Virus record (IMG/VR): IMGVR_UViG_3300045996_003052
Coordinates: 11,743-75,742 of that record
Origin: a virus
DNA length: 64,000 nucleotides
Reading direction: 5' to 3' (one strand)
Shown: positions 3,223 through 36,819 of the stretch, in pieces
How the letters are laid out: each line of letters opens with the position of its first letter
How positions within the stretch are numbered: position 1 is the stretch's first letter
Translations under genes and position numbers: made by a program
Notes under the pieces: model-generated
The model's input: the letters and a program-made list of their open reading frames with translations, nothing else
Databases searched by the model: none
What the model was told of the DNA's origin: nothing

Positions 3223-3299
3223 GGTAAGTCAATCGTACAATGCTTTTCATCAGCAAGTACAATCCTATTATAAGGCACTTTCCAAACAGAGCAAACCAA

Positions 3300-4600: not shown

Positions 4601-4630
4601 TTTACTTTCGCACCCCGGATGTTATATAAT
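4601..4630 (+). promoter_or_regulatory. Phage early promoter
   Basis: TTTACT-18-TATAAT; near-identical copy at 8060-8089; preceded by hairpin 4571-4599. Confidence 0.75.
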
Positions 4631-4678
4631 TATCACAATGAGTTTTTTATTCACCAACTGTCACAACGGAGGTAAAAC

Positions 4679-8015: not shown

Positions 8016-8059
8016 AGTTCCATTGTGTCCCGTCCGTTAGGGGACGGGGCACAATGTTA

Positions 8060-8089
8060 TTTACTTTCGCGCCCCGTATGTTATATAAT
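8060..8089 (+). promoter_or_regulatory. Phage early promoter
   Basis: tttactttcgcgccccgtatgttatataat; preceded by hairpin 8021-8056. Confidence 0.75.
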
Positions 8090-8370
8090 TACTATAGGAG
8101 GTGAAAACGTGGCACAGAAGTGTAGGACCGAAGAGATTACCCGCAGGATGGTCACCGACGACTTCTCCTGGCCGCAGCTCGTCCTGCCGCTAAAGCGGTG
8201 GACCCACGACCGCGTCGTGGAACACGCGTACCTATGTGACCCAGTTCCTTTGGGTCACAAAGTCATGATCTACGTCGGGAACATGTGGGCGCCCAACCCC
8301 AAGAAGGACCCGGCGATCTTGTACGACAGCGTGGACGCCTTCATTGAGGCCGGCTGGGAGGTGGACTGAC

Positions 8371-9219: not shown

Positions 9220-10096
9220 TGCGGCTACAGCTAAGGCGTCGGGAGTTTACGACCGCGTCCTCAGACCCCACGGTCGTCGTCGAGTACGAGGACAGAGCCG
9301 TCCACGTCAAAATCACCGAGTTCCAAAACGTGTACCGCACCGAGCCTACGGACCCACGGGCACCTGGTTGTGGCGAACTTGTTCAAGCACTCGGCGAGAC
9401 GCTGCACCGGACGCTGGAGGAGCTGCACTGTAGCCATTTCGATGAATCTCATCGAAATGACTACGTGGAGCACCTAGAGCAACAGCTCCGTGAAATTCGC
9501 CACCGCGCGGTCTGCGAACTCCTAGCTGACCGCGGCCTAGTCGCGAGCTACGAGTACCCCGGGTACGTCCACGTGTCCAAAGACACGGGGGCGTACTGGG
9601 CGTTTGGTATCAACCAGGAAGGCCAGGACGCCAGCGTCTGGACCGGGCAGCTGCACGACTCGATGGGTGACGTCGTGGGGCTATTTGAGCGTCAGTTTCC
9701 TGACGCCAACGACGTTAAGGCGATCGCCGACGCCCTCGCGGAGGAGGTGAGAAAGTCATGAAGCTCTGGACCTACGAAGTAAGGGCGGTGAATCCAGAAG
9801 AGCGGGATGACGACGGGCTGTGGTGGCCGCGTAAGGTGTGGGGTACGAAGGAGGAGGCTCGGGCTGCCGCTGACCAATACTCACGGTCGGAGTGGGAGGG
9901 GAATCGAGACCTAGAGGGGGAGCTTCCAGGTCTCGAGGACTTTAAGCCGCTAGTTTGGTCTTTAGCTATTAATGAACCAAATGGTGATGAATTTGCGGAA
10001 GACGAATACAACGGCGACGAGTTCACGCTAGTCGTCGTTGCCTGGGAGCCCCAGGCAATTATCGTAAAGGGGTACAATGATCACGAAAATGCGTAG
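9219..10096 (+). CDS. Two hypothetical genes (9219-9761, 9758-10096)
   Basis: Coupled ORFs with RBSs. Confidence 0.65.
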
Positions 10097-10283
10097 TGTC
10101 TCCGTGCCCGCTGCCAGGGACACTCTCTGGCAGCAGGCGCAAGTCCTCGCGCGTCGGCGCGGGATCTCTATGTCTAAGTTCGTCCTCGACTGCGTCGAGA
10201 AAGAAGTAAAGCGCGCGGAAATCCCCGACGCCTACCTACTAGAGCCGGACGACGAGGACTTGGAGCCGGAAAGTGTCGACTGA
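10077..10283 (+). CDS. Ribbon-helix-helix DNA-binding protein
   Basis: RSVSVP...LWQQAQVLARRRGISMSKFVLDCVEKE fits the RHH pattern. Confidence 0.55.
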   Translation: MITKMRSVSVPAARDTLWQQAQVLARRRGISMSKFVLDCVEKEVKRAEIPDAYLLEPDDEDLEPESVD

Positions 10284-10314
10284 AACAATGCGCCACGTTC
10301 GCGTTAAAAAGTAG

Positions 10315-10344
10315 TGTACTTCCGTGCCCCGGGAGTTATATAAT
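10315..10344 (+). promoter_or_regulatory. Phage early promoter
   Basis: TTAAAAA...TGTACT-18-TATAAT. Confidence 0.75.
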
Positions 10345-10366
10345 AGCTATAGGAGGTAAAAATCGG

Positions 10367-21434: not shown

Positions 21435-21920
21435 GTGCCTGGACAGTTCACACCGTTTAGGGGGAAGCTGGAGAAGGTTCAAGAAGACCCAGAACGTCAA
21501 GAGAAGCTAAATGCCATCAAGGCGGACCTTGATAGCAAGAAGATGGGCGAGGTGGCGGAAGAGTACCGCGCGTACTACGACCGCAAGGAGAAGCTGAAGG
21601 AGGAGGAGTCTGAAGTCCAACTTCAGCTAGACGCGCGGATCCAGCTGCTCGTCGCTAACCTAGAAGCGGCTGGGCTGGAGCAAGTTCGAACTAACGACGG
21701 CGGCACCACCCTCTTCATTAAGGACGACGTCTACTGCTCCCAGGAAAACCGCGAGGTGTTCCTCAATTGGATCAGGGAGACCAACAAGGAGGAAATGTTG
21801 ACGGTGCACTACTCGACGATGAGCGCGATGGCGAAGGACGCGCTCCAGAAAGGCAGGCCGCTGCCTCCTGGCCTCAAGGCGTACTTTAAGCAGACAATCG
21901 GCATCCGGCGGAATAAGTAA
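21435..21920 (+). CDS. Conserved phage replication-module protein (coiled-coil N-terminus)
   Basis: Lies between the helicase and the SSB-like gene; own promoter at 21377-21405. Confidence 0.7.
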   Translation: MPGQFTPFRGKLEKVQEDPERQEKLNAIKADLDSKKMGEVAEEYRAYYDRKEKLKEEESEVQLQLDARIQLLVANLEAAGLEQVRTNDGGTTLFIKDDVYCSQENREVFLNWIRETNKEEMLTVHYSTMSAMAKDALQKGRPLPPGLKAYFKQTIGIRRNK

Positions 21921-21930
21921 AGGAGACGGC

Positions 21931-22725
21931 ATGGCGAAGACCGACCTAGAAAAACCTGGCACCACGGCAATCGACATTCAAAAATCACGGCCCGAGTTTC
22001 TAAAGGAGCGCGAGGGGAAAGAGATTCGGGGACTCGAGGAGGTTGGCTCCGACGAGATGGTGCTGCCGCGGCTGACCCTGACGCAGGGAACGACGCCGCA
22101 GCGGCAAGAGGCGAACGCAAGCTTCATCCCCAACCTCAAGGAAGGCGACTTCTTCAACTCCCTCACGAAACAAATCTATGGGCGGCGCGTTGTGGTGATG
22201 CCGCTACTCTTCAGAAAGTCGCGCATCTACTTTAAAGACATCAACGAGGGCGGTGGCTTGATCTGCCGCGCACCCCACGGCAATGACTGCCAGCTAAATG
22301 CGGGCGGCCTGTGCCTCCACTCCCGCTGGCAGGCTGATGGCACGCCGCCGGCGTGCACGGAGTTCTACAACTACGCGTGCCTGCTGTATCCTAGCAACGA
22401 GCCCATCGTAGTGAGCTTGAAGGTGACCGGCATTCGTGCCGGTAAGGAGTGGAACAGCAAGATGCGGATGCGTGGTGCCGACCCGTTCGCTGGACTTTAT
22501 GAGATTAAGTCCATCCAAGTGCCCAACAAAACCCGCCAGCTGTATTGGACGTATCAAATCGACAACGCGGTCGAGGACGGTGGTTGGGTGAGCAACGACC
22601 AGTTCCAATACAACGAGAAGCAGTACATGCTTTGGTCAGAGAACCTTGATACTGGCAAGGCGAAGGTCGACGAGTCAACGCTTTCAGAAGAACAATTTGC
22701 GATGCGTGACGCTGCTGAAATGTAA
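21931..22725 (+). CDS. Probable ssDNA-binding/recombination protein
   Basis: GLEEVGSDEMVLPRLTLTQGTTPQ...GDFFNSLT; acidic tail; position in the replication module. Confidence 0.55.
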   Translation: MAKTDLEKPGTTAIDIQKSRPEFLKEREGKEIRGLEEVGSDEMVLPRLTLTQGTTPQRQEANASFIPNLKEGDFFNSLTKQIYGRRVVVMPLLFRKSRIYFKDINEGGGLICRAPHGNDCQLNAGGLCLHSRWQADGTPPACTEFYNYACLLYPSNEPIVVSLKVTGIRAGKEWNSKMRMRGADPFAGLYEIKSIQVPNKTRQLYWTYQIDNAVEDGGWVSNDQFQYNEKQYMLWSENLDTGKAKVDESTLSEEQFAMRDAAEM

Positions 22726-24254: not shown

Positions 24255-24427
24255 TGGTCTTTATGCCACAGCAGCCGTTTTTCTTAATTTGCCCACATTG
24301 CACAAATAACGACCCTACGATGTTTTCGTTACTAGGTTACCTAATGAGTAGCAAGGGACGGATGTACCTCTGCGAGGTTTGTTCGCGCGCATTTAAGGTG
24401 CTGGACGATGATACAGCTAACAGATAG
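24254..24427 (+). CDS. Small zinc-ribbon protein (57 aa)
   Basis: CPHC...CEVC; TGATG overlap with the primase gene. Confidence 0.55.
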   Translation: MVFMPQQPFFLICPHCTNNDPTMFSLLGYLMSSKGRMYLCEVCSRAFKVLDDDTANR

Positions 24428-24851
24428 GCAAATAGAACGTTTTTGGTCCCGTGTTAATAAAACAGAAAGTTGTTGGCTTTGGACCCATACATTATTAGAA
24501 AATAGATACGGAATGTTTGGTGGCAAACCAGCACACCGAGTAGCATGGATGATTACCAATGGAGAAATTATTAACGGTCTGCACGTGCTTCACAAGTGCG
24601 ATGTAGGAATATGTGTTAGACCAGATCACTTGTTTTTAGGTACGCATACAGATAATATGCAAGACATGATCAAGAAAGATCGTGCCCACTATTTAAGTGG
24701 TGAAAGTAATCGTGCAAGTAAATTAACAAGGTTACAAGTAGACGAAATAAGAAGAATTCGTAATCATACTACTTTAGACCAGTTATCGCGCCAATTTAAT
24801 GTTTCAGTATCTACCGTAATGAATGTTATTCATTTCAGAACATGGCGATAG
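24408..24851 (+). mobile_element. Free-standing HNH homing endonuclease with C-terminal HTH
   Basis: RFWSRV..TESCWLW, AHRVAW, VLHKCDVGICVRPDHLFLGTHTDNMQD; AT-rich. Confidence 0.9.
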
Positions 24852-26787: not shown

Positions 26788-27102
26788 ATGGCTGATCAAG
26801 GGTTTGAGGTCGTACAGCGGCCACGTGGCGGAGGAAACGTACCAGACGCGCTGATGAAGGCACTAATCGAGACGGTAAATACCGACAAGGCGGTACGTGT
26901 CAAGCTAGACGGACACGCGGCGTTCACGAACTGGCAGGCGACGATTCGCGCGCGATTGCGCACAGATCACCAGCTGCGGTTGCGGACGAAGTTCAACAAG
27001 GCGAACAACGTGGTCACAGCGTGGGTTGAGAAGTTCGACCCCCGGGAAACGGGAGAGGGCATGACAGATGAGGACCTTGGCGTATCCGAAGATAAGTCCT
27101 AA
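26788..27102 (+). CDS. Hypothetical protein
   Basis: AGGAGG RBS; promoter TTTACA-17-TAAAAT at 26711-26739. Confidence 0.7.
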   Translation: MADQGFEVVQRPRGGGNVPDALMKALIETVNTDKAVRVKLDGHAAFTNWQATIRARLRTDHQLRLRTKFNKANNVVTAWVEKFDPRETGEGMTDEDLGVSEDKS

Positions 27103-27916
27103 GTTCGATCCGCACGCGCCGAGTCCCAGGATGTTCTGGGAGTTCTGCGCAATTCGGATGGACGAGTGGTGGAACCGACACGAGGGGCTAGGGCCGCCGT
27201 ATACGGCGGACCCAGCCCTCCAACGCTACGTAGGAGATATACCAAATGTCTTTAGGGAACTCGACGAGCCGAACATCTACCTCCATAACTGCATCAACGG
27301 CCAAGGTACGGGGGTGGCGTTATTTGGGGCCGTGGCCTTTAGACTCACTAATAAAATTGGTATACATCAAGGTTTTGGCGGGGTCCCACGTCCAGATCAA
27401 TATCCAGCTTGGCGGGAATATTTCCTTGATGCACGTAGTCGAGGCGTCACAGCTTATACGCGAATATTTCAAACTCCAACAACGACGCAGTACCTTGAGA
27501 CGCTTGGCGAGCTTGCAGAAGGAATGCCTGCCATCGCTGCTCAAATTGATGCGTGTACAACGCTCCACGACGCGTACCACGTCATTAACAAGATTAACCG
27601 CGTCCGGAATTTCTTCGCGTGGCAAGTCTGCGCGGACATGCTCGAGGCCAAGGCGCTGAACTACGACGAGAACTCTTGGTGCTACCTCGGGCCGGGACCG
27701 CTTCACTGCTTCCACTTGATCTTTGGGCGGCGGTTTTCGCAGAGCGAGGCGCTGGGGATCGCTCGCCGAATGCATGAGGTTCAGCACAGGGCCTTGGCGA
27801 ATACCCTTGTACCTTGGCGGTTACCTCCAGGGTACAAGGAGCTTACGCTAAAGAACATCGAGCACGCCGCCTGTGAATATTATAGATGGGTCAAAGCGCA
27901 CTGGAGGATACTATAA
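27068..27916 (+). CDS. 5-hmdU DNA kinase-like (aGPT-Pplase1/HMUDK family) protein, divergent
   Basis: FWEF..IR...R..G.GPPYTADPALQRY...NVFRELD, FFAWQVCADM, LGPG and LKNIEHAACEYYRW match the family layout. Confidence 0.7.
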   Translation: MRTLAYPKISPKFDPHAPSPRMFWEFCAIRMDEWWNRHEGLGPPYTADPALQRYVGDIPNVFRELDEPNIYLHNCINGQGTGVALFGAVAFRLTNKIGIHQGFGGVPRPDQYPAWREYFLDARSRGVTAYTRIFQTPTTTQYLETLGELAEGMPAIAAQIDACTTLHDAYHVINKINRVRNFFAWQVCADMLEAKALNYDENSWCYLGPGPLHCFHLIFGRRFSQSEALGIARRMHEVQHRALANTLVPWRLPPGYKELTLKNIEHAACEYYRWVKAHWRIL

Positions 27917-27917
27917 A

Positions 27918-28175
27918 ATGCAAAATCTTCGGATGAAAGAGTACCTAGAGAACGGAAGCTGCCTGGACGTTAATGCTGTGGGCGTACCGGTGGAGGGGTT
28001 TGAGGGGGTTGCCTGGGAGCTCAAGAAATTCTTGGACGGCTACGACTACTGCGACGCGAAGAATGAGCGGTGGATGTGGAGCATCGGACAGCGCGTCACT
28101 GATAGCCGTATTTTTGCGGCTACAGACACGAGGTTCTACGCGAACCCGATGTTCAAATGCCTGTGGTTGCGGTAA
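27918..28175 (+). CDS. Hypothetical protein
   Basis: Abuts the HMUDK-like gene. Confidence 0.6.
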   Translation: MQNLRMKEYLENGSCLDVNAVGVPVEGFEGVAWELKKFLDGYDYCDAKNERWMWSIGQRVTDSRIFAATDTRFYANPMFKCLWLR

Positions 28176-28228
28176 GTAAAAAAAGATGAGTCTACGGCGC
28201 ATTATTTTGTGTACAAGCGGAGGGTAAC

Positions 28229-28861
28229 ATGATAGAGTTACCTACATTGAGAGAGGGAATGTTGGTACGCTACCCAAATAATTCCATTTGGTATGTGGAC
28301 TACATCAGCCCCTCAGGCGCCTACGTCATACCCATCACTGGGTACGAGACGGAGATCGTCACATCTGCTCGCAAGGGACGAAAGCGAGCAGCTGTAGTGA
28401 AATATCCTGCTCCGCAGGTAATTTCACTACACTCCGTACTCGAGGTGCTTGACCCAACTTCCTTCAACGTGAAGGACATCATGAGGAGAGTTATGGCGAG
28501 AAAAGCAGCAAACGAAGGTGGCGTGGCGGAGATGGATCCGGGAGCAACGGTAGAAGGCGCGAAGGCGGAGCGGGCGCCACGCACCACGCAGAAGTACGTG
28601 CGCACGACAAAAGAAGCCAAGGAGATGCGCGGCCAGGGCCGCGTGGTCCTCGACTTCCTGAACGCGACGACTGAACCGAAGTCGGTCGCCGAGGTGACCG
28701 AAGCGGTCAAGGGCGCGATTGGCGGCAAGCAGGCGCCGGAGCGGGTGGTTGGCTACTACCTGACACGCTTCAAGCGCGATGGCCTGGTCAATGTCGTGAA
28801 GTCCGACGGCACGTCCACCCCAGGAGCTGGGGTGGAGGGCCTCGAGTCAGTAAACGCGTAA
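28229..28861 (+). CDS. Protein with C-terminal winged-helix paralog 3; internal in-frame start at 28493
   Basis: RGQGRVVLDFL...KQAPERVVGYYLTRFKRDGLV; GAGGAG RBS before ATG 28493. Confidence 0.7.
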   Translation: MIELPTLREGMLVRYPNNSIWYVDYISPSGAYVIPITGYETEIVTSARKGRKRAAVVKYPAPQVISLHSVLEVLDPTSFNVKDIMRRVMARKAANEGGVAEMDPGATVEGAKAERAPRTTQKYVRTTKEAKEMRGQGRVVLDFLNATTEPKSVAEVTEAVKGAIGGKQAPERVVGYYLTRFKRDGLVNVVKSDGTSTPGAGVEGLESVNA

Positions 28862-28886
28862 ATCCCGCACAGGGAGGTACGCAATT

Positions 28887-28918
28887 CGGGAGGGGGAAAC
28901 CCCTCCCGATTTTCGTTT
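28887..28918 (+). terminator. Intrinsic terminator
   Basis: cgggagggg-gaaa-cccctcccg followed by attttcgttt. Confidence 0.7.
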
Positions 28919-29132
28919 AAGGAGGACCACGTGGCAAAGTGCTTAAAGTGCGACCAATGTGGTCTTGTTTCAGGCGCAACTTTCGACAGCAAGGCGTGGG
29001 GGTTTCTCAAGGTAAGTTTTGACGATAACTTTGTTCAAACATATAATGAAAATGGAACCCCGTTGGATTTTTGCAGCCTTCGCTGCCTTTCGAATTGGGC
29101 TAATTCTAAGGTTGCCCATGAGGAGAACAAAG

Positions 29133-29351
29133 ATGGCGTTAAAGATCAAGTGCTACAAAGACGCCCGGGGCGAGTTCCGTTGGACGGCGCTTGACGGCAA
29201 CAACAAGGTCATCGCGGACGGGAGCGAAGGGTACAGCACAGAACGTAATTTGGTGTTGGCGCTCAAGAACACGCTGGCCGAGTTTCGCGAACCCGTGAAA
29301 TTTGTCGGCTTTCAAATTCCGCTTCAAGCGAAGCGGACACCGGAGCTATGA
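29133..29351 (+). CDS. YegP/DUF1508-like protein
   Basis: YKDARGEFRWTALDGNNKVIADGSEGYS. Confidence 0.75.
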   Translation: MALKIKCYKDARGEFRWTALDGNNKVIADGSEGYSTERNLVLALKNTLAEFREPVKFVGFQIPLQAKRTPEL

Positions 29352-29505
29352 CAATGACCACAGTCATTGTCATTGCCACGTTTATCGCCGTCTTCCTGGT
29401 CGTGTACTTCGTCGGCCGAAGGCTTGCGGGTTAAAAAAAGATGTACATCACGATAATCTCGTGATATAATCTTCTTATGAATCTTAGGCGTTCAGAACCA
29501 ACAAG

Positions 29506-30786
29506 ATGTTAAACGAACAACCACAGCGAAGTAAGCGTGTCAGGGAAGACCGACGCTTCGACAAGACGCAGCTCAAGGCCGCTGGACACGGGAGGACTGT
29601 GAACCGAGATTACGGATCCCATGCCTTGCGGTGGAACTTTGTTGTTAATGAGGTAAACAAGCCTATGGAAGAAGCGTTAGGATTCTGGGCAGCTGGCCTT
29701 ATTGACGGCGAAGGCTGCTTCGACATCAGGGTCTCTCGAGAAGGTCGAAATTCACTACAGTTTATTTTTCAGCTAGGGTTACGAGCTGACGATGAAGAAA
29801 CTATAGAGCTTTTGCGCAACCTCCTGAAGGTTGGTAAGATTAGCGACCAACAAAACGAACGTATTACCAACGCCAAACCGATTAAAATGCTAACGGTTTG
29901 TAGTCTTGAAGATTGTCTTGTTCTCAGAGACTTCTTTCTCGACGCGCCGTTGCGTTCTAAGAAACGTTTCGACTTTGCAGTATGGGCTGAAGCGTTAACA
30001 GCCTTTGAAGTCCACAAGAAAACCAATTATCAGCTTACTGACGAGCTGATGTCGAAGATGGAAAACTACCAGAAGGAGTTAAGAGAAGGCAGAAAATTTC
30101 CATCAACCGCTCTTCCACCCAGGAAAGACTACATTAAGGATACTTTTCTACGTTGGGGCTGGGCAGCCCGACAAATCAAGCAGGGAGAGTCCATTCTCGA
30201 CGTAGGTTGTGGGCAAGATCAGCCGCTACTGTACGTTCTCGCTTCACGGAAACAAACCGTCCCCGACGTGTACGTTGGGGTCGATTTAAACCGGATCGTG
30301 AAGAAATCGGCCTGCAGGTGGGCCGACATTTACGACGAGTTCGACTTCGTTAACAACGGCAGGTGGCTGATCGACAACGAGAAGGGCTACACGCCCTTCG
30401 ACAAGGCGGTGTGCTTTGAGGTTATTGAACACATGGCTCCCGAAGACGGAATTAAGTTATTGGAAACCCTTCACTACTGCCTACGTCAAGGGGGTATTCT
30501 CTTCCTATCCACACCCGTGTTTGATGGTTATCGTGCCGCTAACCACATCCATGAGTACACCATCCCAGAACTCAGCGCTACGATTCAAAATTCAGGTTTT
30601 CGAGTTCAACGTCGAATTGGTACGTTTGCTTCTAAGCCTGAAATTCGACCGGTCTTAGATGAGCACGAGAGGGCTGTCTACGAACGGCTAGAGGAGTGGT
30701 TCGGCGGCGACGTCCTGTCGACGATCTTCGCATCCCTCCACCCTGACCAGAGCAGGAATAACCTCTGGGTTTGCGAGCGCGTATGA
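29506..30786 (+). CDS. Class I SAM methyltransferase with an in-frame LAGLIDADG endonuclease insert
   Basis: LAGLIDADG motif WAAGLIDGEGCF (insert ~29635-30145). MTase motifs ILDVGCG, CFEVIEHM, LRQGGILFLSTP. Promoter at 29442-29470. Confidence 0.85.
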   Translation: MLNEQPQRSKRVREDRRFDKTQLKAAGHGRTVNRDYGSHALRWNFVVNEVNKPMEEALGFWAAGLIDGEGCFDIRVSREGRNSLQFIFQLGLRADDEETIELLRNLLKVGKISDQQNERITNAKPIKMLTVCSLEDCLVLRDFFLDAPLRSKKRFDFAVWAEALTAFEVHKKTNYQLTDELMSKMENYQKELREGRKFPSTALPPRKDYIKDTFLRWGWAARQIKQGESILDVGCGQDQPLLYVLASRKQTVPDVYVGVDLNRIVKKSACRWADIYDEFDFVNNGRWLIDNEKGYTPFDKAVCFEVIEHMAPEDGIKLLETLHYCLRQGGILFLSTPVFDGYRAANHIHEYTIPELSATIQNSGFRVQRRIGTFASKPEIRPVLDEHERAVYERLEEWFGGDVLSTIFASLHPDQSRNNLWVCERV

Positions 30787-31235
30787 GGTTCTGTACACCG
30801 CATTGGACAAAGCTGCGTGAGGCTATCGACAGCCGTGGCCTGACACCGTTCATCGCTAAGGACGGGAAGGTCGCTACAAAGCAGCTCATCAAACAGCTTG
30901 AGGACCAAGACGTCACGAAAGCCACGTTCGACCCACTAATGTCGGCGCACTGGGCCATTGCGGGAAATACTATGAGCCTAATTGACCAGACTGGCAACAA
31001 CCCGCTGTACTTGCTGGCGGGTGAAGAGGCGCCGGAAGACCCGGTTAAAGGTTATCCTGGCTTTGAAAGCCGAACGTGGCCCCGGTGCCCGCTGTGTTAC
31101 ATCAACCTGGCACATGAGGTCTCGTGCACGAACCCTAAGTGTATGCTAGACAAACAGCACGGTTACGATTGGATGATCGAACGCGCGGCGGACGACGCAC
31201 TCGCACGGGCGCGCGAATTTGGACTGATAGCTTAA
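30783..31235 (+). CDS. Hypothetical Cys-containing protein
   Basis: ATGA overlap; CPLC...C...C. Confidence 0.65.
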   Translation: MRFCTPHWTKLREAIDSRGLTPFIAKDGKVATKQLIKQLEDQDVTKATFDPLMSAHWAIAGNTMSLIDQTGNNPLYLLAGEEAPEDPVKGYPGFESRTWPRCPLCYINLAHEVSCTNPKCMLDKQHGYDWMIERAADDALARAREFGLIA

Positions 31236-31247
31236 CGGAGGGGATTC

Positions 31248-31448
31248 ATGAATGGAAAAATCGCGCGGCTCGTCAAGGACAAAGGGTTCGGGTTTATTAA
31301 GGCAGGTGGGTCAGACTACTTCTTCCATCGGTCATCGGTCAAAGGCGTCGCCTTTGAGGACCTGAAGGAAGGTGCTGAGGTAACGTTCGAGGAAGCGGAA
31401 GGTGCGAAAGGGCCGCGGGCCGAGGACGTCTACCTCCGGGACAACTAG
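31248..31448 (+). CDS. csp: Cold-shock domain protein
   Basis: KGFGFI (RNP1), YFFH (RNP2), KGPRAEDV. Confidence 0.9.
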   Translation: MNGKIARLVKDKGFGFIKAGGSDYFFHRSSVKGVAFEDLKEGAEVTFEEAEGAKGPRAEDVYLRDN

Positions 31449-31452
31449 GGCT

Positions 31453-32382
31453 ATGATTTGCATTTTGGAGGGACCGGACGGAAGCGGCAAGACCACGCTA
31501 GCGAGGCACCTTGAAAAAAACTATAGCTTTCAATACCGACATATGGGGCCGCCAAGCGGCATACCGCCGCTTCAAGAGTATGGACGCGCTCTTTACGACG
31601 CTGCTTGCGGAGGTGGAGACGTCGTCTTCGACCGCCTACACGTTGGCGAGCGGGTTTACGGACCAACACTTAGAGGTGTTGATTTACTTGGGCGAGGGGG
31701 TGAGGTTCTCATTCACCGTTTGCTCACCGCCTATGGGGCCCGACTTGTCTTCTGCCTTCCACCGTACAGTGTCGCGTTTGAAAACTGGCTCGAGCGCCAC
31801 CAAGGTGGCGCCGAACTCATCAAGAAAAGTCAAACCTACGAGCAAGTCTACTACGCGTACAAGGCGCTGAGCAACGACTTATTCTATGCCGACTCCGTCT
31901 GGTGGGACTATACGCTACAGCCTATGGAGCTCGCGGCAAAGACGTTGTTAACCTTCGACGCGAAACGCCCGCGGTGTCCCGAGGGCGTGGTGGGAAGTCC
32001 AAACCCACAATTTTTATTCGTGGGGGAACAGGCAAACCAGGAGTACCTAGACATTCCGTTCTTCGCGCTTGACAACTCCAGCCACTTCCTAAACTCCTGC
32101 ATCAAAGATGCAGGATTTCAGGAAAGAGACATTGCTCTTGTTAACGCTAAGGCTTTGGATGGCGCTAAAGCACCCCTAGGCGCAATTTATATGGCCCTTA
32201 GGGAACCGAAAGTTATAGCTCTAGGGTCACATGCATCTCACGCGTTAAAAGCCCAAGGGGTCACGCACCATAAACTCCCGCATCCAAGTTATTGGAAGCG
32301 CTTTCACAGCTCGAGGCCCGACGAGTATGTCCGACAGCTCCGAGAAATTCGTATCAACTCCTACCACGTTCAGCGCGCGTGA
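31453..32382 (+). CDS. dNMP kinase fused to a UDG-superfamily domain
   Basis: ILEGPDGSGKTT and FDR; C-terminal FLFVGEQ, VIALG, LPHPSY. Confidence 0.8.
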   Translation: MICILEGPDGSGKTTLARHLEKNYSFQYRHMGPPSGIPPLQEYGRALYDAACGGGDVVFDRLHVGERVYGPTLRGVDLLGRGGEVLIHRLLTAYGARLVFCLPPYSVAFENWLERHQGGAELIKKSQTYEQVYYAYKALSNDLFYADSVWWDYTLQPMELAAKTLLTFDAKRPRCPEGVVGSPNPQFLFVGEQANQEYLDIPFFALDNSSHFLNSCIKDAGFQERDIALVNAKALDGAKAPLGAIYMALREPKVIALGSHASHALKAQGVTHHKLPHPSYWKRFHSSRPDEYVRQLREIRINSYHVQRA

Positions 32383-33226
32383 ATTTCACACGGCCTGGGA
32401 TGAACTGCTACGTTACCTGTTTTACCATGGCCAGACCGCGAGTCCTCGCGGGCTGACCATCAAAGAACAGCTAAACGTCACAATTCATGTCAGAGACGCG
32501 TACCGAAACATCCTAGTCAACCCGTCGCGCAATATCGGTTACCGCGCAATGGTGGCCGAGTGGCTGTGGATTGCCGGCGGTTTCAACGACCTTGAATCGC
32601 TGGCCCAGTACAACGCAAACTACCGTAAGTTTAGCGACGACGGTGAGACGTTATACGGCGCATACGGCCCCAGGATTAGACTGAACTGGGGCGTTGTGCG
32701 CGATCAGTTGAATACTGATCGCGACACACGGCAGGCCTACCTGCCAATCTGGGGACCGGACACCAGGCGCAACACGAAGGACACGCCTTGCACGTTGGGG
32801 ATGCAATTTCTAATTCGAGGCGGACAACTGCACCTGACGGTAGGGATGCGAAGTTCTGACGCGTGGCTAGGCTTACCGAACGATTTCTACGTGTTCTCAC
32901 AGCTGCAGAACGAGATGGCTGCGGCGTTAACGGTTCCAATAGGCTCACTGACGTTGAACCTAGGATCATCGCACCTCTACGAAACTAACTTTAACCTAGT
33001 TGAACAGTCGTTCGAACACGAAAGCCGCACAATCAGAACCCCAAGTTTTAGCTATGCTATTGAATTTTTGCCTGAACTATATCGACGTTTTCAGACAATG
33101 TCGGGTACACAGATGTCGGTTGGAGGAGAAACGATATGGGACCTCTACGCGAAGATCTTAGTGACCCCCAGTCGGGTGGACGCCTTAGCCTTGTTGAAGA
33201 AGATCGAAAAAATGACGGACGACTAG
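32327..33226 (+). CDS. Thymidylate-synthase-fold enzyme, dCMP hydroxymethylase/methylase type
   Basis: AEWLW, GAYGPR, DTPCT, MRSSDAWLGLPND (Asp at the ThyA Asn177 position), GSSHLY. Confidence 0.8.
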   Translation: MSDSSEKFVSTPTTFSAREFHTAWDELLRYLFYHGQTASPRGLTIKEQLNVTIHVRDAYRNILVNPSRNIGYRAMVAEWLWIAGGFNDLESLAQYNANYRKFSDDGETLYGAYGPRIRLNWGVVRDQLNTDRDTRQAYLPIWGPDTRRNTKDTPCTLGMQFLIRGGQLHLTVGMRSSDAWLGLPNDFYVFSQLQNEMAAALTVPIGSLTLNLGSSHLYETNFNLVEQSFEHESRTIRTPSFSYAIEFLPELYRRFQTMSGTQMSVGGETIWDLYAKILVTPSRVDALALLKKIEKMTDD

Positions 33227-33645
33227 ACATCCACGAGTACTACCTACAAATGCTCTCCTTGGTCGCGTCGCGGTCCACCTGCCGACGACGTGCCGTCGCC
33301 GCCATCATTACGGACCACAAGGGCATGGTCCTGTCAACCGGCTACAACGGTGTGCCGCGAGGTATTGCGCACTGCCTCGTGAACCCGTGTCCCGGTGTCA
33401 GCGACCGTCCAGGCGACTCATCGCGGTGTGAAGCGGTTCACGCCGAAGTCAACAGCATCGTCCAGTGCGCGGACCTTAGCCGCGCGACGATCATGTATGT
33501 CTCTTGCACGCCTTGTTTTAGCTGCGCGAAGATGATTCTCAACACGCCGATAAAAGTAGTTAGGTGCGTAGAGGCGTACGCTGACAGGTCGGGCATTGAG
33601 ATGCTAAGTCGTGGTGGTATTCAAGTTTTCGTAGGCCGTGGCTAA
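33136..33645 (+). CDS. dCMP deaminase
   Basis: RSTC.RR, GYNG, HAE, PCFSC; GGAGGAG RBS inside the TS gene. Confidence 0.9.
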   Translation: MGPLREDLSDPQSGGRLSLVEEDRKNDGRLDIHEYYLQMLSLVASRSTCRRRAVAAIITDHKGMVLSTGYNGVPRGIAHCLVNPCPGVSDRPGDSSRCEAVHAEVNSIVQCADLSRATIMYVSCTPCFSCAKMILNTPIKVVRCVEAYADRSGIEMLSRGGIQVFVGRG

Positions 33646-33781
33646 GGAAACGGATCTTGCTTGGGCCGCTGGCTTTTTTGACGGAGAAGGTTGCACTCTG
33701 TTTAGAATAACCAAGTACAATGGTCGCTTTCTTTCAGTGCAAATTACGCAAAAATATGTTTTAAACATCAAATTAATTTAA
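33638..33781 (+). pseudogene. Truncated LAGLIDADG homing endonuclease remnant (47 codons)
   Basis: VAKETDLAWAAGFFDGEGCTLF...SVQITQK then an early stop; not in the ORF track. Confidence 0.75.
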
Positions 33782-33820
33782 AACCGAATTGTAAACGTAG
33801 ACAGATACCGGAATTTTTAA

Positions 33821-35662
33821 GTGAAGCCATCAGCTAATCAAGGATCGCTTTTTGTTCGAGAATCAATTTCTGGGTGGCGTGCGCCTGAAGTATTTCCTGA
33901 AATAGACTCAAGGTACACGCGTATTGGATTTGATACAGAAACTTCCCACAAAGGGTGGCGTGACCCAAAAAATAAAGTCGTCGGAGTTTCTTTAGCTTTA
34001 GAAGATGGCCGGGATTTCTATTTCCCGTGGGGACATCTTGGAGGTGGTAACTTAGATAAAAGTAGAGTTCTAAACTTCCTGAGCAAGACCCTCAAAGGTA
34101 AGACCTTAGTTTGCGCAGAAGCGAAGCACGAGATCCAGATGATGCGCCGGGAGGGCGTAGACTTCGAGGCTATGGGGTGTGCCATCCGAGAGGTTCAATA
34201 CCCGCCCGCTCTATTATCTGACGCGCGGCGTTCTTTTCAGCTTAACGACTTAGCCAAGGACTTCCTTGGCCGCGAAAAGATCGACCTAGACGCGGCAAAG
34301 ATCTGGGAAATGCCAGCTAGCGAAGTTGGCCCGTACGCCGAACTCGATGCCCGCCTAAACCTAGACCTAGACACCGTATACGCACCGCTTATTCAAGAGC
34401 AAGACCTTGGAAAGGTTCTACAACTAGAATACGACCTGATCTACTGCGTTTGTGAGATGGAGCGGAACGGAGTCCCGCTCGACGTACCTAAGCTAGCGCG
34501 TTGGCGCCGAGAGGCAGGGCAGCGGTGGGACCAGGCAGTCTACCAAGTCCACCGCGACAGCGGGCTGAAACTCAACTTTAACTCGCCGCTCCAAGTAGCG
34601 CAGCTCTTTGACAAGCTCGGTCTTGAGTATCCCAAGACAGCGGGTACGAAGCAGCACCCTGAAGGTTTTCCAAGCTTCACCGACGCCTTCTTGTCGGACA
34701 TCGACCACCCCCTGGTGCAGTCAGTGCGCCGGGCTAAAGCCGTCGATTCGTTGCGAACCAAATACCTTGACAAGTACTGGGACGCACTAGTTGACGGCTA
34801 CCTCCACTACAACCTTCACCAGCTGAAGGCAAACGAGTATGGTACTATCTCGGGAAGATTCTCTTCAAGTAGCGTTAATATTCAACAGGTGTTTGATCCA
34901 GAACGACAAGAAGATAAGCTGGGCTTCATGGAGTGGCTCATCCGCGAACTTTTCTTGCCAGTACCTCCCAGGACACCTGGGAGATACTGGTGGGTTAAGC
35001 TCGACGCGTCCCAAATTGAATTTCGACTCTTTGTGCACTACTCGCGGTCTGCGCGGCTTATTAAGCGATTTTGTGAAGACCGTGGGGTCGACTTCCATCA
35101 AATGGTCGCCGACCTTTGCCGTATCAAGCGTAAGCCCGCCAAGAATATCAATTTCGGAAAACTATTTGGCATGGGCCGAGAAAAAATGGCGCGTCAGCTT
35201 GGACTACCGCAAGATGAAGCTGACAGTCTATTTGATCAGTACAACGCGATGTTTCCCGAAACCCAGGAGCTGATGAACGCCACAATGTCCCTGGCTAAGG
35301 CGCGCGGCTATGTGAAAACGAGACTCGGACGCCGAGCTCGTTTTCCCGACGGGGAGCGCCTGCATTCTGCCTTAAATAGGGTGATTCAAGGCAGTGCGGC
35401 AGACGTACTGAAGCTAAAGCTGTTGGAGGTCTACAACAACCGCAAGTTCTTCGACATCCATAAGCTGCTGTTCACAGTCCACGACGACATCAACATCGCG
35501 ACCCAGAACCTACGACGGGTTCGAGACATTAAAGAATGTCTCGAAGCCCCCATACCCAACCTGCCGTTTCGCGTCCCCATCCTGTGGGACGCGGACGTTG
35601 GTCCTAATTGGGCGGTTAACTACCGCGAGAAGCAGCAGACCAAACTAAGGAGGGCTGCGTGA
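33821..35662 (+). CDS. polA: Family A DNA polymerase with 3'-5' exonuclease domain
   Basis: FDTET, SGRFSS, DASQIEFR, KNINFGKLFGMG, IQGSAAD, TVHDD. Confidence 0.95.
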   Translation: MKPSANQGSLFVRESISGWRAPEVFPEIDSRYTRIGFDTETSHKGWRDPKNKVVGVSLALEDGRDFYFPWGHLGGGNLDKSRVLNFLSKTLKGKTLVCAEAKHEIQMMRREGVDFEAMGCAIREVQYPPALLSDARRSFQLNDLAKDFLGREKIDLDAAKIWEMPASEVGPYAELDARLNLDLDTVYAPLIQEQDLGKVLQLEYDLIYCVCEMERNGVPLDVPKLARWRREAGQRWDQAVYQVHRDSGLKLNFNSPLQVAQLFDKLGLEYPKTAGTKQHPEGFPSFTDAFLSDIDHPLVQSVRRAKAVDSLRTKYLDKYWDALVDGYLHYNLHQLKANEYGTISGRFSSSSVNIQQVFDPERQEDKLGFMEWLIRELFLPVPPRTPGRYWWVKLDASQIEFRLFVHYSRSARLIKRFCEDRGVDFHQMVADLCRIKRKPAKNINFGKLFGMGREKMARQLGLPQDEADSLFDQYNAMFPETQELMNATMSLAKARGYVKTRLGRRARFPDGERLHSALNRVIQGSAADVLKLKLLEVYNNRKFFDIHKLLFTVHDDINIATQNLRRVRDIKECLEAPIPNLPFRVPILWDADVGPNWAVNYREKQQTKLRRAA

Positions 35663-35822
35663 CAGCAACAGAAGAACAAGAAATGCATGAACTTGCATTA
35701 CAGCTAGCAAACCTAACTTTTGGTTCAGGGTGGGAGGCAATGCGATATATGGCGATTGCCCAAGTAATGGAAAAGCTTGCTGAATACTGCGCGGTACGGT
35801 GTAAAAAGTGTGAAGGATCAAA

Positions 35823-36284
35823 ATGACGAAGCTAGCGTACAACGAGAGCTATTGGACGCGCCAGCTAATGGCGTACCTAGCTGAGAAACACCGCGACTGG
35901 CTCTGTTATAAGCTCGCCGACACGTTTACGTCGGGTATTCCTGACGTCCACGTAGCGGCAGAAGGGATGGCAACGTGGCTAGAGCTAAAGGTACTGCGGC
36001 CAAAGCAAAGTGTATCTGACCGCATTAAGATGCGGTCCGACAGGCACGCGAAGCTTCAACTGCACGATATGTGTAAGATTGAAGATAATGGCGTCAACGC
36101 TGCGTACCTCTTCTTTTTTCCGCTTGGCGACCTTCACTACGTCGTGCTTAAACCGAGTACCGTAAAGGAATGGGTCGACGTTGGAGATAGTCTAAGCTAT
36201 CAGGAACTTTATCGTGATTCGTACGACGACTTCGTAAAGGTATCGAATTTCTGCGGAGGTGAGTACAGTGCGCTTCAATTTTGA
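35823..36284 (+). CDS. VRR-NUC/PD-(D/E)XK nuclease
   Basis: NES...GIPD...WLELK...LQ. Confidence 0.75.
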   Translation: MTKLAYNESYWTRQLMAYLAEKHRDWLCYKLADTFTSGIPDVHVAAEGMATWLELKVLRPKQSVSDRIKMRSDRHAKLQLHDMCKIEDNGVNAAYLFFFPLGDLHYVVLKPSTVKEWVDVGDSLSYQELYRDSYDDFVKVSNFCGGEYSALQF

Positions 36285-36819
36285 CGACGTCGGCGATTTT
36301 CACCGAAAGTTTGGGCTTCACAACGTAACATACACCGCCGCAGAACCGGTAGAGTACACTGATGACCTGATTAAATTCAGGCTTAAATTCCTACTGGAGG
36401 AGCTCCAGGAGATCGTGGAGGGCTGCGGCTACTGCGTCGCGCACGTCAGTGAACCTCAGGGCGGTTCCCACCTTGAGGCTGTCAAGAAACCCAACGGTAG
36501 CATGAAACACGAGGCCGTCTTCGACGGCCTCTTGGACCTGGCGTACGTGACCTTTGGCATGGCGCACGTCCTCGGGTACCCGTGGCAGGACGGTTGGGAC
36601 GAGGTGCAACGCGCCAACATTACGAAGGAACGCTGCGGCATCAACCACACGTACATAGATTCAGGACACCAAGACTATGAAGGATGCGTTTCTTGCGGTA
36701 AACCACGCGAACAACATTCACTGCGCGGCTCAGCCTACGACGTCATTAAGCCGCGAGGTTGGCATGCGCCGGACATCAAGAGCATCCTAAAGCGCGTCGG
36801 ATTTATCTTGGGTGGCTAG
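36259..36819 (+). CDS. MazG-like NTP pyrophosphohydrolase with a Cys/His insert
   Basis: FHRKFG, EELQE, DGLLDLAYV, EVQRANITK, KP.GW..PD. Confidence 0.8.
   Translation: MSTVRFNFDDVGDFHRKFGLHNVTYTAAEPVEYTDDLIKFRLKFLLEELQEIVEGCGYCVAHVSEPQGGSHLEAVKKPNGSMKHEAVFDGLLDLAYVTFGMAHVLGYPWQDGWDEVQRANITKERCGINHTYIDSGHQDYEGCVSCGKPREQHSLRGSAYDVIKPRGWHAPDIKSILKRVGFILGG

Follow-up and report, generated by a model that had tools for sequence, protein, structure and literature searches.

The window, a 64,000-nucleotide stretch of the complete 75,742-bp (75.7 kb) genome of an uncultured phage, contained a block of genes for nucleotide metabolism and replication (Table 1). All sequence features described in a sequence-only reading of this DNA were found where that reading had placed them, including the MazG-like enzyme, which matched PF01503, and the class I SAM methyltransferase, which matched Methyltransf_23. 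The gene for the thymidylate synthase (TS) homolog overlapped the 3' end of the kinase gene and the earliest candidate start of the deaminase ORF, as had been described.

Table 1. Genes and open reading frames of the region, with positions in the window.
Position	Strand	Feature	Support
26788..27102	+	Small ORF, 104 aa, upstream of and overlapping the start of the PF18723 gene	No Pfam, PHROG or NCBIfam match
27068..27916	+	PF18723 (HMUDK_hel / aGPT-Pplase clade 1) protein, predicted HhH DNA-glycosylase fold	E 3.6e-31; AF2 model
27873..28175	+	Small ORF, 100 aa, overlapping the end of the PF18723 gene	No family match
28229..28861	+	ORF, 210 aa, conserved in the block	No family match
29019..29351	+	DUF1508-domain protein	PF07411 E 3.8e-6
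29506..30786	+	Virus-specific class I SAM methyltransferase (Methyltransf_23)	E 1e-13; LAGLIDADG insert
30771..31235	+	ORF, 154 aa, outside the conserved block	No family match
31402..32382	+	TMK-like P-loop dNMP kinase fused to a family-4-like UDG-fold domain	AF2 and Foldseek; phrog_761
32327..33226	+	TS-family enzyme, predicted dCMP C5-hydroxymethylase	PF00303 E 8e-17; residues; tree
33136..33645	+	dCMP/dCTP-family zinc deaminase	PF00383 E 1e-16; phrog_174 dCMP deaminase E 7e-37
33821..35662	+	Family A DNA polymerase (PolA) with 3'-5' exonuclease domain	PF00476 E 1.4e-55
36259..36819	+	MazG/PRA-PH nucleoside triphosphate pyrophosphohydrolase	PF01503 PRA-PH E 6e-8; phrog_671 (nucleotide pyrophosphohydrolase) E 2e-18

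The neighbourhood of the PF18723 gene was syntenic in five metagenome contigs. The small ORF upstream of it was retained in position and sequence (52-65% identity) in relatives L022, L023, L024 and L026, whereas the 100-aa and 210-aa ORFs were syntenic in L022-L025 (55-72% and 63-71% identity, respectively). The DUF1508-domain gene was also syntenic in relatives, and PolA was 81% identical in L025. The methyltransferase carried an in-frame LAGLIDADG endonuclease domain (about aa 53-174, nt 29662-30027); in L022, L023 and L025, residues 1-52 were joined straight to residues 175-425. The 154-aa ORF had no counterpart in L023 or L025, in which the methyltransferase gene was followed directly by the o66 homolog.

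The translation of the TS homolog contained KDTPCTLGMQF and GMRSSDAWLGLPNDFYVF, with Cys155 as the catalytic residue. Asp was aligned with Asn177 of E. coli ThyA (EcTS) and with site 143, and Thr with site 147, which bears out the Asp at the Asn177 site and the PCT motif noted earlier. The combination D/T/D at EcTS sites 143/147/177 was shared by six aligned relatives and T4 gp42, compared with D/N/N in the dUMP hydroxymethylases of SPO1, SP10, M6, PaMx11, ViI and PhiW-14, N/P/D in the dCMP methylases of Xp12 and PaMx74, and L/H/N in ThyA. The six dUMP-type partners all combined Cys-Asn with Asn177, consistent with the earlier statement that characterised 5-hmdU DNA kinases work with dUMP hydroxymethylases. 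Cys-Thr with Asp177 occurred in 117 of the 120 top homologs, the motif of the remaining three not being matched by the pattern search. The nearest solved structure was the CMP hydroxymethylase MilA (E 4e-20; ThyA, 2e-11). A maximum-likelihood tree, which had long branches (T4 gp42, ThyA) and numerous unresolved forks, placed the window clade with the dUMP hydroxymethylases (90/88), separate from ThyA, Xp12 and T4. Asp177 supports a cytosine-type enzyme, as had been proposed, and these sequence features predict 5-hydroxymethyl-dCMP as its product, with a methylated product as the main alternative.

Eighty IMG/VR loci with an Asp-type TS were compared with 80 HMUDK_hel (Asn-type) loci. The Asp-type loci encoded the kinase (61), the deaminase (60), PolA (57), MazG (39) and the methyltransferase (37, at a median distance of 2.1 kb from the TS); the methyltransferase occurred at none of the 80 Asn-type loci. 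The block thus recurs in many IMG/VR phages, and also in the cultured phages AXL3 and PW916, whose TS enzymes were about 40% identical to that of the window and which share the methyltransferase, MazG, a kinase of TMK-UDG size, the Asp-type TS and the deaminase. Five block genes were homologous and contiguous in PW916 (39% identity for the methyltransferase), and the same five are annotated in AXL3 (PMC7504290). Both phages differ from the window phage in apparently lacking a close copy of its PF18723 protein. A neighbourhood of TS, deaminase, MazG and PolA is a published signature of cytosine-modified phage DNA (PMC8670742), and Asp177 TS with PRA-PH and dCMP deaminase has been tied to such DNA in 2021 (PMC8670742) and 2024 (bioRxiv 10.1101/2024.12.05.627091). 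The cytosine-modification gene set is therefore of an already known kind.

Genes such as these are usually annotated as thymidylate supply, for example in AXL3 (PMC7504290), in which case the TS homolog would make dTMP from deaminase-derived dUMP and the DNA would be unmodified. We consider this extremely unlikely. Cytosine-modified phage contigs are distinguished from unmodified ones best by two residues, Asp177 and a non-His residue at site 147 (PMC8670742), and the TS homolog scored 57 bits, far below the NCBIfam thymidylate synthase cut-offs (174 at best). Moreover, the DNA of AXL3, with the same block, was refractory to 35 of 37 restriction enzymes, resisting those with G/C in their sites; the two that cut it both have A/T-only sites (PMC7504290). 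No identification of the modified base of AXL3 was found in the published literature searched.

The modified base could instead be 5-methylcytosine, as in Xp12 and PaMx74. The TS homolog would then make 5-methyl-dCMP and the deaminase would yield dT nucleotides, the PF18723 protein and the methyltransferase being unrelated. Since part of the 5-methyl-dC pool would be deaminated to dT, no separate thymidylate synthase would be needed. Xp12, PaMx74 and the mSCD-B5 contig indeed have an Asp177 TS adjoined by a deaminase, with PolA and MazG in the neighbourhood. Of seven assayed Asp177 TS enzymes, whether or not of the window clade, five made 5-methyl-dCMP (bioRxiv 10.1101/2024.12.05.627091). The window phage might also profit from such a route: its genome encoded a single TS-family gene and no ThyX in a whole-genome search, leaving it without a ThyA-type dTMP synthase. 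However, the window TS shared only about 30% identity with the enzymes of Xp12 and PaMx74, had Y/D/T rather than W/N/P at sites 80/143/147, and grouped with dUMP hydroxymethylases in the tree. Asp143 is common to every known hydroxymethylase; the equivalent Asp145 of the T4 enzyme (dCH) is a polar residue beside candidate hydrating waters (PMC6400193). In two records, with TS enzymes 47% identical to that of the window, a gene of the TET-associated (5hmC) glycosyltransferase (TAGT) family lay less than 4.5 kb away; because these enzymes require a hydroxyl group, they indirectly support a hydroxymethyl product in this clade. A search of the genome found no DHFR of the phage's own, a weak point against methylation, as the host enzyme could serve. 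Methylation is thus a possible account, although we doubt it, and the most likely modification, judged from sequence, is 5-hydroxymethylcytosine.

The kinase-UDG fusion proposed earlier was supported by fold, although its UDG Pfam match was marginal (23.2 bits against a cut-off of 24.3 bits). The protein, which likely starts at the ATG at 31453, contained a GPDGSGKT P-loop and a DR motif and matched phrog_761 thymidylate kinase (E 4e-14). In the AF2 model (pLDDT 93.5), the N-terminal half resembled YorR, deoxynucleoside kinases and thymidylate kinases and the C-terminal half UdgX and the Tth and S. tokodaii family-4 UDGs (Foldseek E 7e-7 to 1e-4 for both halves), and the predicted fold confirms the fusion. 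Its kinase homologs at the Asp-type loci included 47 full fusions and 12 kinases without the UDG domain, and the UDG-fold domain occurred at none of the 80 Asn-type loci.

The gene at 27068-27916 matched PF18723 with 109 bits (cut-off 25 bits), which places it in the HMUDK family as the sequence-only reading had suggested. The protein likely starts at Met22 (27131), matching the recorded 261-aa product, and consisted only of the PF18723 helical domain, as does M6 gp55. Its earlier label "kinase-like" is misleading, since PF18723 corresponds to the helical part of the 5-hmdU kinase system and not to the kinase itself. The motif departures noted before were present, but at positions that vary within the family; the invariant residues N60, R63, D66, the GPG turn and C269-E270 were all retained. 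The AF2 model (pLDDT 88.8) had the two-helical-bundle HhH fold of QNG1/DUF2419 (VIA Z 10.2, rmsd 4.8 Å, 220 aligned), the 5-PmdU glycinyltransferase PaMx11 gp46 (PUGT/ADDT, PDB 8Z2N; Z 10.0, 4.9 Å, 222 aligned) and MjOgg (Z 9.6, 3.9 Å, 180 aligned), a Z of about 10 being a value that chance similarity between helical proteins can produce. The sequence relation to gp46 and HhH glycosylases was at the detection limit (hhalign with ADDT, E 0.089), and a PDB profile search gave no match. The motif around the invariant Cys (NIEHAaCEY) resembled EVETiLCKW of gp46, which contains the catalytic Cys247; this proposed link to the ADDT catalytic Cys rests on the fold similarity and the weak profile alignment. 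As modelled, the protein is an HhH base-flipping enzyme related to amino-acid:DNA transferases, not a kinase. We know of no activity for any PF18723 protein.

These features bear on the suggestion that a DNA-base kinase, either the PF18723 protein or the kinase-UDG fusion, phosphorylates 5hmC and that the methyltransferase or another enzyme completes the base. As first written, with the PF18723 protein as the kinase activating 5hmC, it has no basis, given the HhH fold, the lack of a P-loop or other nucleotide-binding motif in this protein, and the absence from the whole genome of PF18748 and PF18747, the families of true P-loop 5-hmdU DNA kinases. M6 gp55, with the same domain, is likewise dispensable in vitro for both the kinase and the transferase steps (PMC8989533). 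For the variant with the fusion, there is a formal precedent in SP10, whose P-loop 5-hmdU DNA kinase carries a base-flipping PF18723 domain in the same polypeptide; the window fusion similarly joins a P-loop kinase to a base-flipping UDG fold, and full fusions were confined to Asp-type modules. However, the TMK-like domain is the sole candidate dNMP kinase for modified dCMP, which the phage needs, the nearest folds of the kinase were nucleoside and nucleotide kinases, and the 12 loci with the kinase alone dispense with the UDG domain. Taken together, phosphorylation of the base in DNA appears very unlikely. No amino-acid:DNA transferase (PF18724) was found across the complete genome either, in agreement with the absence noted earlier, although the same search detected those of M6, PaMx11, ViI and PhiW-14, and PF18748 was also detected in known phages. 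An unrecognised kinase or transferase may be present among the early genes, because the majority of these match no family.

The pairing of a PF18723 protein with a cytosine-type TS was unusual in the gene-neighbourhood survey, in line with the sequence-only reading. The TS neighbours at sampled HMUDK_hel loci were of the Asn type in 51 of 52 cases, and PF18723 occurred in 5 of the 50 Asp-type TS records (about a tenth), all five without PF18748 or PF18724. A search of a phage protein collection with the window protein matched only PhiJL001. The 51 uracil-type partners fit action of PF18723 proteins on hmU at least as well as on hmC and make 5hmU the simplest assumed substrate of the family. 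The 5-hydroxymethyl-dC nucleotides made by the TS homolog might be partly deaminated, giving 5hmU in DNA with or without 5hmC, on which the PF18723 protein would act. A dCMP-family deaminase is encoded not only by the window phage but also in the L043 record, a second lineage in which the pairing occurs, and of 90 deaminases adjoining Asp177 TS genes, 7 produced 5hmdU in DNA in vivo if given 5hm-dC nucleotides (bioRxiv 10.1101/2024.12.05.627091). On the other hand, deaminases are common with or without PF18723 (60 of the 80 Asp-type modules), so their presence is not discriminating; the genome lacks the kinase and the transferase by which known systems process 5hmU; and no dTTPase or dUTPase was identified that could clear competing dTTP. 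We regard this route as rather unlikely, but it is compatible with replacement of cytosine and the two can hold together. Neither this deamination nor the dTMP route through methyl-dCMP, both put forward earlier as options for a new pathway, is a new idea: deamination of 5-hydroxymethyl- or 5-methyl-dC nucleotides was proposed for Xp12 (Wang & Ehrlich 1982 and Kuo 1982, as cited in PMC11946847) and for metagenomic phages with an Asp177 TS beside deaminases (bioRxiv 10.1101/2024.12.05.627091). What stands of the earlier interpretation is the cytosine-type TS and its unusual pairing, while the kinase label and the phosphorylation scheme built on it do not.

The logic and enzyme classes of the block are those of the T4 hmC pathway (gp42, the dCTPase gp56, the dNMP kinase gp1 and the dCMP deaminase cd), with a pyrophosphatase, a dNMP kinase and a dCMP-family deaminase all present. 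Equivalents of the catalytic Cys, Glu58, Asp143, Thr147 and Asp177 are found in both gp42 and the window TS. The window enzymes are not orthologous to those of T4, however: the TS belongs with the siphophage dUMP hydroxymethylases rather than the gp42 branch, the pyrophosphatase is of the MazG/PRA-PH type, and the kinase is TMK-like with a UDG fold. We identified no T4-type glucosyltransferase in the window phage, and the methyltransferase and PF18723 protein are additional. The thymine-hypermodification systems of M6, PaMx11, ViI, SP10 and PhiW-14 share with it the PF18723 protein and a hydroxymethylase of the same broad TS clade, but theirs is uracil-type, and the window phage differs in having neither their PF18748/PF18747 kinase nor their PF18724 transferase. 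Family searches revealed no PLP, radical-SAM or flavin tailoring genes in the window phage. We found no mention of PF18723, the class I methyltransferase or the kinase-UDG fusion in the two studies of Asp177 TS modules (PMC8670742; bioRxiv 10.1101/2024.12.05.627091).

We hypothesize, and hold it to be fairly probable, that the block encodes T4-like, pre-replicative replacement of cytosine by a C5-modified cytosine, to which a stand-alone PF18723 protein has been added. For MazG, the kinase, the deaminase and the methyltransferase, substrates are assumed by analogy. MazG would act as a dCTPase, converting dCTP to dCMP, and the TS homolog, as predicted from Asp177, Thr147, Asp143 and its clade, would convert dCMP to 5-hydroxymethyl-dCMP. 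The TMK-like domain would phosphorylate the modified dCMP as an analogue of T4 gp1, and the phage PolA would incorporate the modified nucleotide. The deaminase may supply the U/T branch from dCMP or C5-modified dC nucleotides, the fused UDG-fold domain probably excludes uracil from DNA, and the methyltransferase probably has the modified nucleotide or base as its target. The new element is the PF18723 domain alone, beside a cytosine-type hydroxymethylase and without the usual kinase and transferase; we infer that its substrate is a 5-hydroxymethyl-pyrimidine in already replicated phage DNA and that its route would involve neither phosphorylation nor amino-acid transfer.

The source record (75,742 bp) has direct terminal repeats and a completeness rating of 100%. 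Up to ~37 kb of the window, the + strand carries early and replication genes (SNF2 helicase, Pam3 gp33/gp34-like genes, AEP primase, HNH endonuclease, UvrD helicase and PolA), and lysis and structural genes lie on the − strand beyond this point. Compared by megablast with 50,697 phage records, the region showed no relatives at the DNA level. The sequence-only reading had described a thymidylate synthase (TS) homolog of cytosine type embedded in a candidate new pyrimidine hypermodification pathway. Its observations were confirmed; of its interpretation, the cytosine-type TS was supported, whereas the kinase role given to a neighbouring gene and the novelty of the pathway were not. The translated TS gene contained KDTPCTLG and RSSDAWLGLPND and belonged to PF00303. 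It overlapped the 3’ end of the kinase-UDG fusion gene as well as the earliest potential start of the deaminase ORF. The deaminase, PolA, MazG and class I methyltransferase genes all gave clear family matches.

Features of the window discussed in the text
Feature	Position	Strand	Evidence
Pam3 gp33 and gp34 homologs	21435-22725		PF23984, PF23977
HNH endonuclease	24408-24851		
PF18723 (HMUDK_hel) protein	27068-27916		PF18723, 109 bits
Class I methyltransferase with inserted LAGLIDADG domain	29506-30786	+	clear family match
LAGLIDADG domain	29662-30027		in-frame insertion
154-aa ORF	30771-31235		
Kinase-UDG fusion	31402-32382		marginal by Pfam; AF2 model
TS homolog	32327-33226		PF00303, E 8e-17
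Deaminase	33136-33645	+	PF00383, phrog_174
MazG/PRA-PH	36259-36819	+	clear family match

The homologs of cyanophage Pam3 gp33 and gp34 were located just upstream of the primase, and PF23984 was also found near the TS gene in two related IMG/VR loci. The HNH endonuclease gene lay between primase and helicase and occupied a different position in a related metagenome contig (L022). The 154-aa ORF 3’ of the methyltransferase had no counterpart in two other such contigs (L023 and L025). Both appear to have entered the replication block as mobile insertions.

All six residues equivalent to the catalytic Cys146, Glu58, Arg166, Asp169, His207 and Tyr209 of E. coli ThyA (EcTS) were kept in the TS homolog, as determined by alignment with EcThyA and T4 gp42. 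The final Asp of RSSDAWLGLPND aligned with EcTS Asn177, T4 Asp179 and the corresponding Asp of MilA. Site 177 is known to govern the choice between uracil and cytosine; here, Asp in place of Asn recognizes N3 and N4 of cytosine. Asp152 of the KDTPC motif (EcTS site 143) was invariant in 39 relatives; an Asp at this site was common to T4 gp42 and six dUMP hydroxymethylases, but not present in ThyA, Xp12 or PaMx74. The equivalent T4 residue, Asp145, is polar and lies beside waters that have been suggested as the source of hydration of the methylene intermediate (PMC6400193). Sites 177 and 147 were the best separators of modified and unmodified phage contigs in an earlier study (PMC8670742).

Residues at three EcTS sites in an alignment with enzymes of known product
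Enzyme	143	147	177
ThyA	L	H	N
Xp12 and PaMx74 dCMP methylases	N	P	D
T4 gp42 dCMP hydroxymethylase	D	T	D
dUMP hydroxymethylases (SPO1, SP10, M6, PaMx11, ViI, PhiW-14)	D	N	N
Window enzyme and relatives	D	T	D

The best solved relative of the TS homolog was the CMP 5-hydroxymethylase MilA (E 4e-20), with true thymidylate synthases at 2e-11. In a search of 5.8 billion proteins, the Cys-Thr pair and the Asp were present in 117 of the 120 best homologs, and pattern search recovered no motif in the other three. An apparent ‘PCP’ type of two IMG/VR TS genes was rejected, as the motif was an upstream Pro-Cys-Pro. In a maximum-likelihood tree, the clade of the window enzyme grouped with the dUMP hydroxymethylases (90/88), apart from ThyA, Xp12 and T4, although branches were long. 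Two phage records with a TS 47% identical to that of the window encoded a gene of the TET-associated glycosyltransferase family within 4.5 kb of it; such glycosyltransferases need a hydroxyl acceptor. The only TS-family gene of the genome was of the Asp177 type, and neither ThyX nor DHFR was found in the genome. Based on the site residues, the tree, the relation to MilA, the glycosyltransferase neighbours and the single TS in a genome lacking ThyX and DHFR, the window enzyme is probably a dCMP hydroxymethylase, with 5-hydroxymethyl-dCMP as its predicted product and tetrahydrofolate, instead of dihydrofolate, as the folate expected to be released. Since five of seven Asp177 enzymes tested made 5-methyl-dCMP (bioRxiv 10.1101/2024.12.05.627091), the main alternative is that it is a dCMP methylase. 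The Xp12-type module resembles the window in having an Asp177 TS adjoining a dCMP-family deaminase, together with a MazG. In contrast, the Xp12 and PaMx74 enzymes carry Trp80, Asn143 and Pro147 where the window enzyme has Tyr, Asp and Thr, share only ~30% identity with it and form a separate clade in the tree.

Genes within 10 kb of the TS were counted in 80 IMG/VR loci with an Asp-type (Asp177) TS. A kinase was present in 61 loci, a deaminase in 60, PolA in 57, MazG in 39 and the class I methyltransferase in 37, the latter at a median distance of 2.1 kb from the TS. The block also occurs in cultured phages: Pseudoxanthomonas phage PW916 contained contiguous homologs of five block genes of the window, namely the methyltransferase, MazG, kinase, TS and deaminase genes, and the same five genes are annotated in Stenotrophomonas phage AXL3. 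Only two of 37 restriction enzymes digested AXL3 DNA, and the recognition sites of these two consist of A/T alone (PMC7504290). No identification of the modified base of cultured phages of the AXL3/PW916 type was found in the literature searched. In the Asp-type loci that lack the class I methyltransferase, the additional neighbour seen most often was a member of the PF00145 C5-cytosine DNA methylase family (10 of 113 ORFs), which in one locus (L043) lay directly 3’ of a PF18723 gene and was fused to a Mu F-like domain. A TAGT glycosyltransferase, sugar-nucleotide enzymes and a radical-SAM/SPASM protein also occurred among these loci.

The association of TS (Asp177), PRA-PH and dCMP deaminase with cytosine-modified phage DNA was described by MetaGPA (PMC8670742), in the supplements of which we found no Pfam accessions. 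The TS-deaminase-MazG core of the window thus belongs to a class already described, the pre-replicative cytosine-replacement modules, and is not the new pathway that had been suggested. Two of the three routes put forward for it, deamination of hydroxymethyl-dCMP leading to 5-hydroxymethyluracil DNA and deamination of methyl-dCMP as a ThyA-independent source of dTMP, are already in print. Deaminases encoded beside such TS genes can accept 5-methyl- and 5-hydroxymethyl-dC nucleotides as substrates, and a ThyA-independent route to T has been proposed (bioRxiv 10.1101/2024.12.05.627091). A deamination route to T has been known for Xp12 since 1982 (Wang & Ehrlich 1982 and Kuo 1982, as cited in PMC11946847). 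As a variant within this class the window is new, on account of its orphan PF18723 protein and of the module's uncharacterised methyltransferase.

The LAGLIDADG domain interrupts the methyltransferase in frame. In three related contigs (L022, L023 and L025) methyltransferase residues 1-52 were joined straight to residues 175-425, and a fourth (L024) had a different LAGLIDADG at the same site, 30% identical. The motif flanking the insertion appears to be duplicated (RDYGSHALRW and KDYIKDTFLRW). The methyltransferase was absent from all 80 Asn-type (HMUDK_hel) loci, against its 37 occurrences in the Asp-type loci. The kinase-UDG fusion, marginal in Pfam searches, was borne out by an AF2 model (pLDDT 93.5). 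Foldseek matched its N-terminal half to YorR, deoxynucleoside kinases (deoxyadenosine kinase) and the TMK of S. aureus and T. thermophilus. This half contained the P-loop GPDGSGKT and an invariant D60-R61 (consensus GxxGxGK[ST] and DR motif), while scoring below the Pfam and NCBIfam cut-offs. The C-terminal half matched UdgX and the family-4 UDGs of Tth and S. tokodaii. Of the family-4 UDG hallmarks, motif A (GEAPG) reads VGEQAN in the window protein and motif B (HPS) reads HPSY; the acidic residue of motif A was Glu or Asp across relatives. In place of the four 4Fe-4S cysteines, the UDG-fold domain (residues 184-326) has only two cysteines. The full fusion was encoded in 47 of the 80 Asp-type loci and the UDG-fold domain in none of the 80 Asn-type loci; across these loci, a TMK-like kinase with a UDG-fold domain devoid of Fe-S cysteines was confined to cytosine-type modules. 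Because these associations were specific to Asp-type loci, we infer that the methyltransferase and the kinase-UDG fusion belong to the cytosine pathway.

Membership of the gene at 27068-27916 in the HMUDK family had been named beforehand as a test, and the protein matched PF18723 well above the cut-off of 25 bits, covering profile positions 6-274 of 281. It consisted of the PF18723 domain only and contained no Walker A motif. Six-frame profile searches of the complete genome recovered no PF18748 or PF18747 (E ≤ 10) and no PF18724; the rest of the genome was thus also devoid of a recognizable amino acid:DNA transferase, in line with its reported absence from the window. The same searches found PF18748 in M6, PaMx11, ViI and SP10, and PF18724 in known phages. 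Three kinase queries in phmmer recovered a kinase from no more than 28 of the 80 HMUDK_hel loci, and these counts were set aside in favour of Pfam profiles with positive controls. M6 and PaMx11 encode their 5-hmdU DNA kinase as a P-loop protein of its own with 190 aa (gp54 and gp49; PF18748), and the PF18723 protein is encoded by the next gene (gp55 and gp50). M6 gp55 was dispensable for 5hmU DNA phosphorylation and glycine transfer in lysate reconstitutions (PMC8989533), the only ones on record. In the control searches, SP10 (AB605730) had a PF18748 kinase fused to PF18723 and no PF18724, whereas PhiW-14 (NC_013697) had PF18723 and PF18724 and no PF18748; the classical thymine systems thus also differ in the family members used. 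Characterised 5-HMUDKs work with an Asn177 dUMP hydroxymethylase and usually a PF18724 transferase, in contrast to the window, which has neither. The protein is therefore not an HMUDK-like kinase but a helical PF18723 protein with a predicted glycosylase fold, and the third proposed route, in which it would activate 5hmC in DNA for completion by the methyltransferase, found no support as written. No literature was found under the name PF18723, nor any on methoxymethylcytosine.

The AF2 model of the PF18723 protein (pLDDT 88.8) had the two-bundle fold of helix-hairpin-helix (HhH) glycosylases. VIA aligned it with the queuosine glycosylase QNG1 (Z 10.2, rmsd 4.8 Å, 220 aligned residues), the PaMx11 5-PmdU glycinyltransferase gp46 (Z 10.0, 4.9 Å, 222 residues) and MjOgg (Z 9.6, 3.9 Å, 180 residues), with unrelated rows at Z < 3. 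The HhH relation was visible by VIA only: plain Foldseek gave no match at E ≤ 0.001 and singled out gp46 at a TM of 0.48, and no PDB entry was matched by a profile built from the PF18723 alignment. All family-invariant residues were kept, including the C-terminal C269-E270. This pair lies in a motif that resembles EVETxLCKW of gp46, which holds the catalytic Cys247. Since hhalign paired the two motifs weakly (E 0.089), we do not claim homology between PF18723 and the amino acid:DNA transferases at the sequence level.

PF18723 is rarely paired with a cytosine-type TS. Of 80 IMG/VR loci selected by their PF18723 gene, 52 had a TS within 10 kb, 51 of uracil type and one of cytosine type. Conversely, five of 50 records chosen for a cytosine-type TS contained a PF18723 gene anywhere (4 of the 27 that were at least 90% complete), and none of the five contained PF18748 or PF18724. 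The gene order of the window lineage (UvrD, two small ORFs, PF18723, two ORFs, DUF1508, methyltransferase, kinase-UDG, TS, deaminase, PolA) was shared by five soil-type metagenome contigs over the parts they spanned, with 46–81% protein identity. Given this co-occurrence and the conserved order, PF18723 with a cytosine-type TS is a recurrent minority variant and not a chance neighbourhood. Neither a single-protein query nor an alignment query recovered relatives of the window PF18723 protein from IMG/VR, and none were recovered from genome contigs. A tblastn against the phage collection yielded PhiJL001 only (24% identity), and a scan of JGI metagenomes yielded five short contigs.

By analogy with T4 and Xp12, MazG would return dCTP to dCMP, which the TS homolog would convert to 5-hydroxymethyl-dCMP. 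The TMK-like domain would phosphorylate this nucleotide for incorporation of the product by PolA, and the deaminase would supply the U/T branch. More speculatively, the PF18723 protein may flip a 5-hydroxymethyl-pyrimidine out of DNA and attack its C6 via Cys269; the target would be 5hmC or, should hydroxymethyl-dC nucleotides be substrates of the deaminase, 5hmU. A partner enzyme of an unrecognised kind is possible among the early genes, most of which match no family. Before the window, genome bases 1-11900 contained a leftward operon of two GT2 glycosyltransferases, a Methyltransf_24 protein, a CxxCxxCC protein and a BACON/Ig protein, adjoining long Ser-rich proteins. The GT2 genes, all within the first 11.7 kb, are surrounded by structural genes of the BACON/Ig and Ser-rich kinds and were not counted as DNA-modifying; that they encode DNA glycosyltransferases is possible.

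Base modifications of phage DNA decide which host defences are escaped, and have yielded tools for epigenetic sequencing. PF18723 is named for a kinase activity foreign to it, and cytosine-type genomes without kinase or transferase offer a clean setting in which to learn its role. Across many phages, the methyltransferase and kinase-UDG fusion show a tight and specific association with Asp-type TS modules, and cultured phages whose DNA resists restriction enzymes with G/C sites are among these. A cytosine pathway is probably masked by the labels ‘thymidylate synthase’, ‘thymidylate kinase’ and ‘5-hmdU DNA kinase’ routinely given to these genes. An idea that we consider unlikely, if worth stating, is that PF18723 proteins are enzymes in their own right, which flip 5-hydroxymethyl-pyrimidines, attack them via the conserved Cys-Glu pair and, where the phage has a cytosine-type hydroxymethylase, found a branch of cytosine hypermodification that does without P-loop kinase and amino acid:DNA transferase, and that, separately or jointly, the virus-specific class I methyltransferase of the block makes an undescribed base, such as O-methylated 5-hydroxymethylcytosine. 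If this were true, the base made by this methyltransferase would also occur in cultured phages, AXL3 and PW916 among them.
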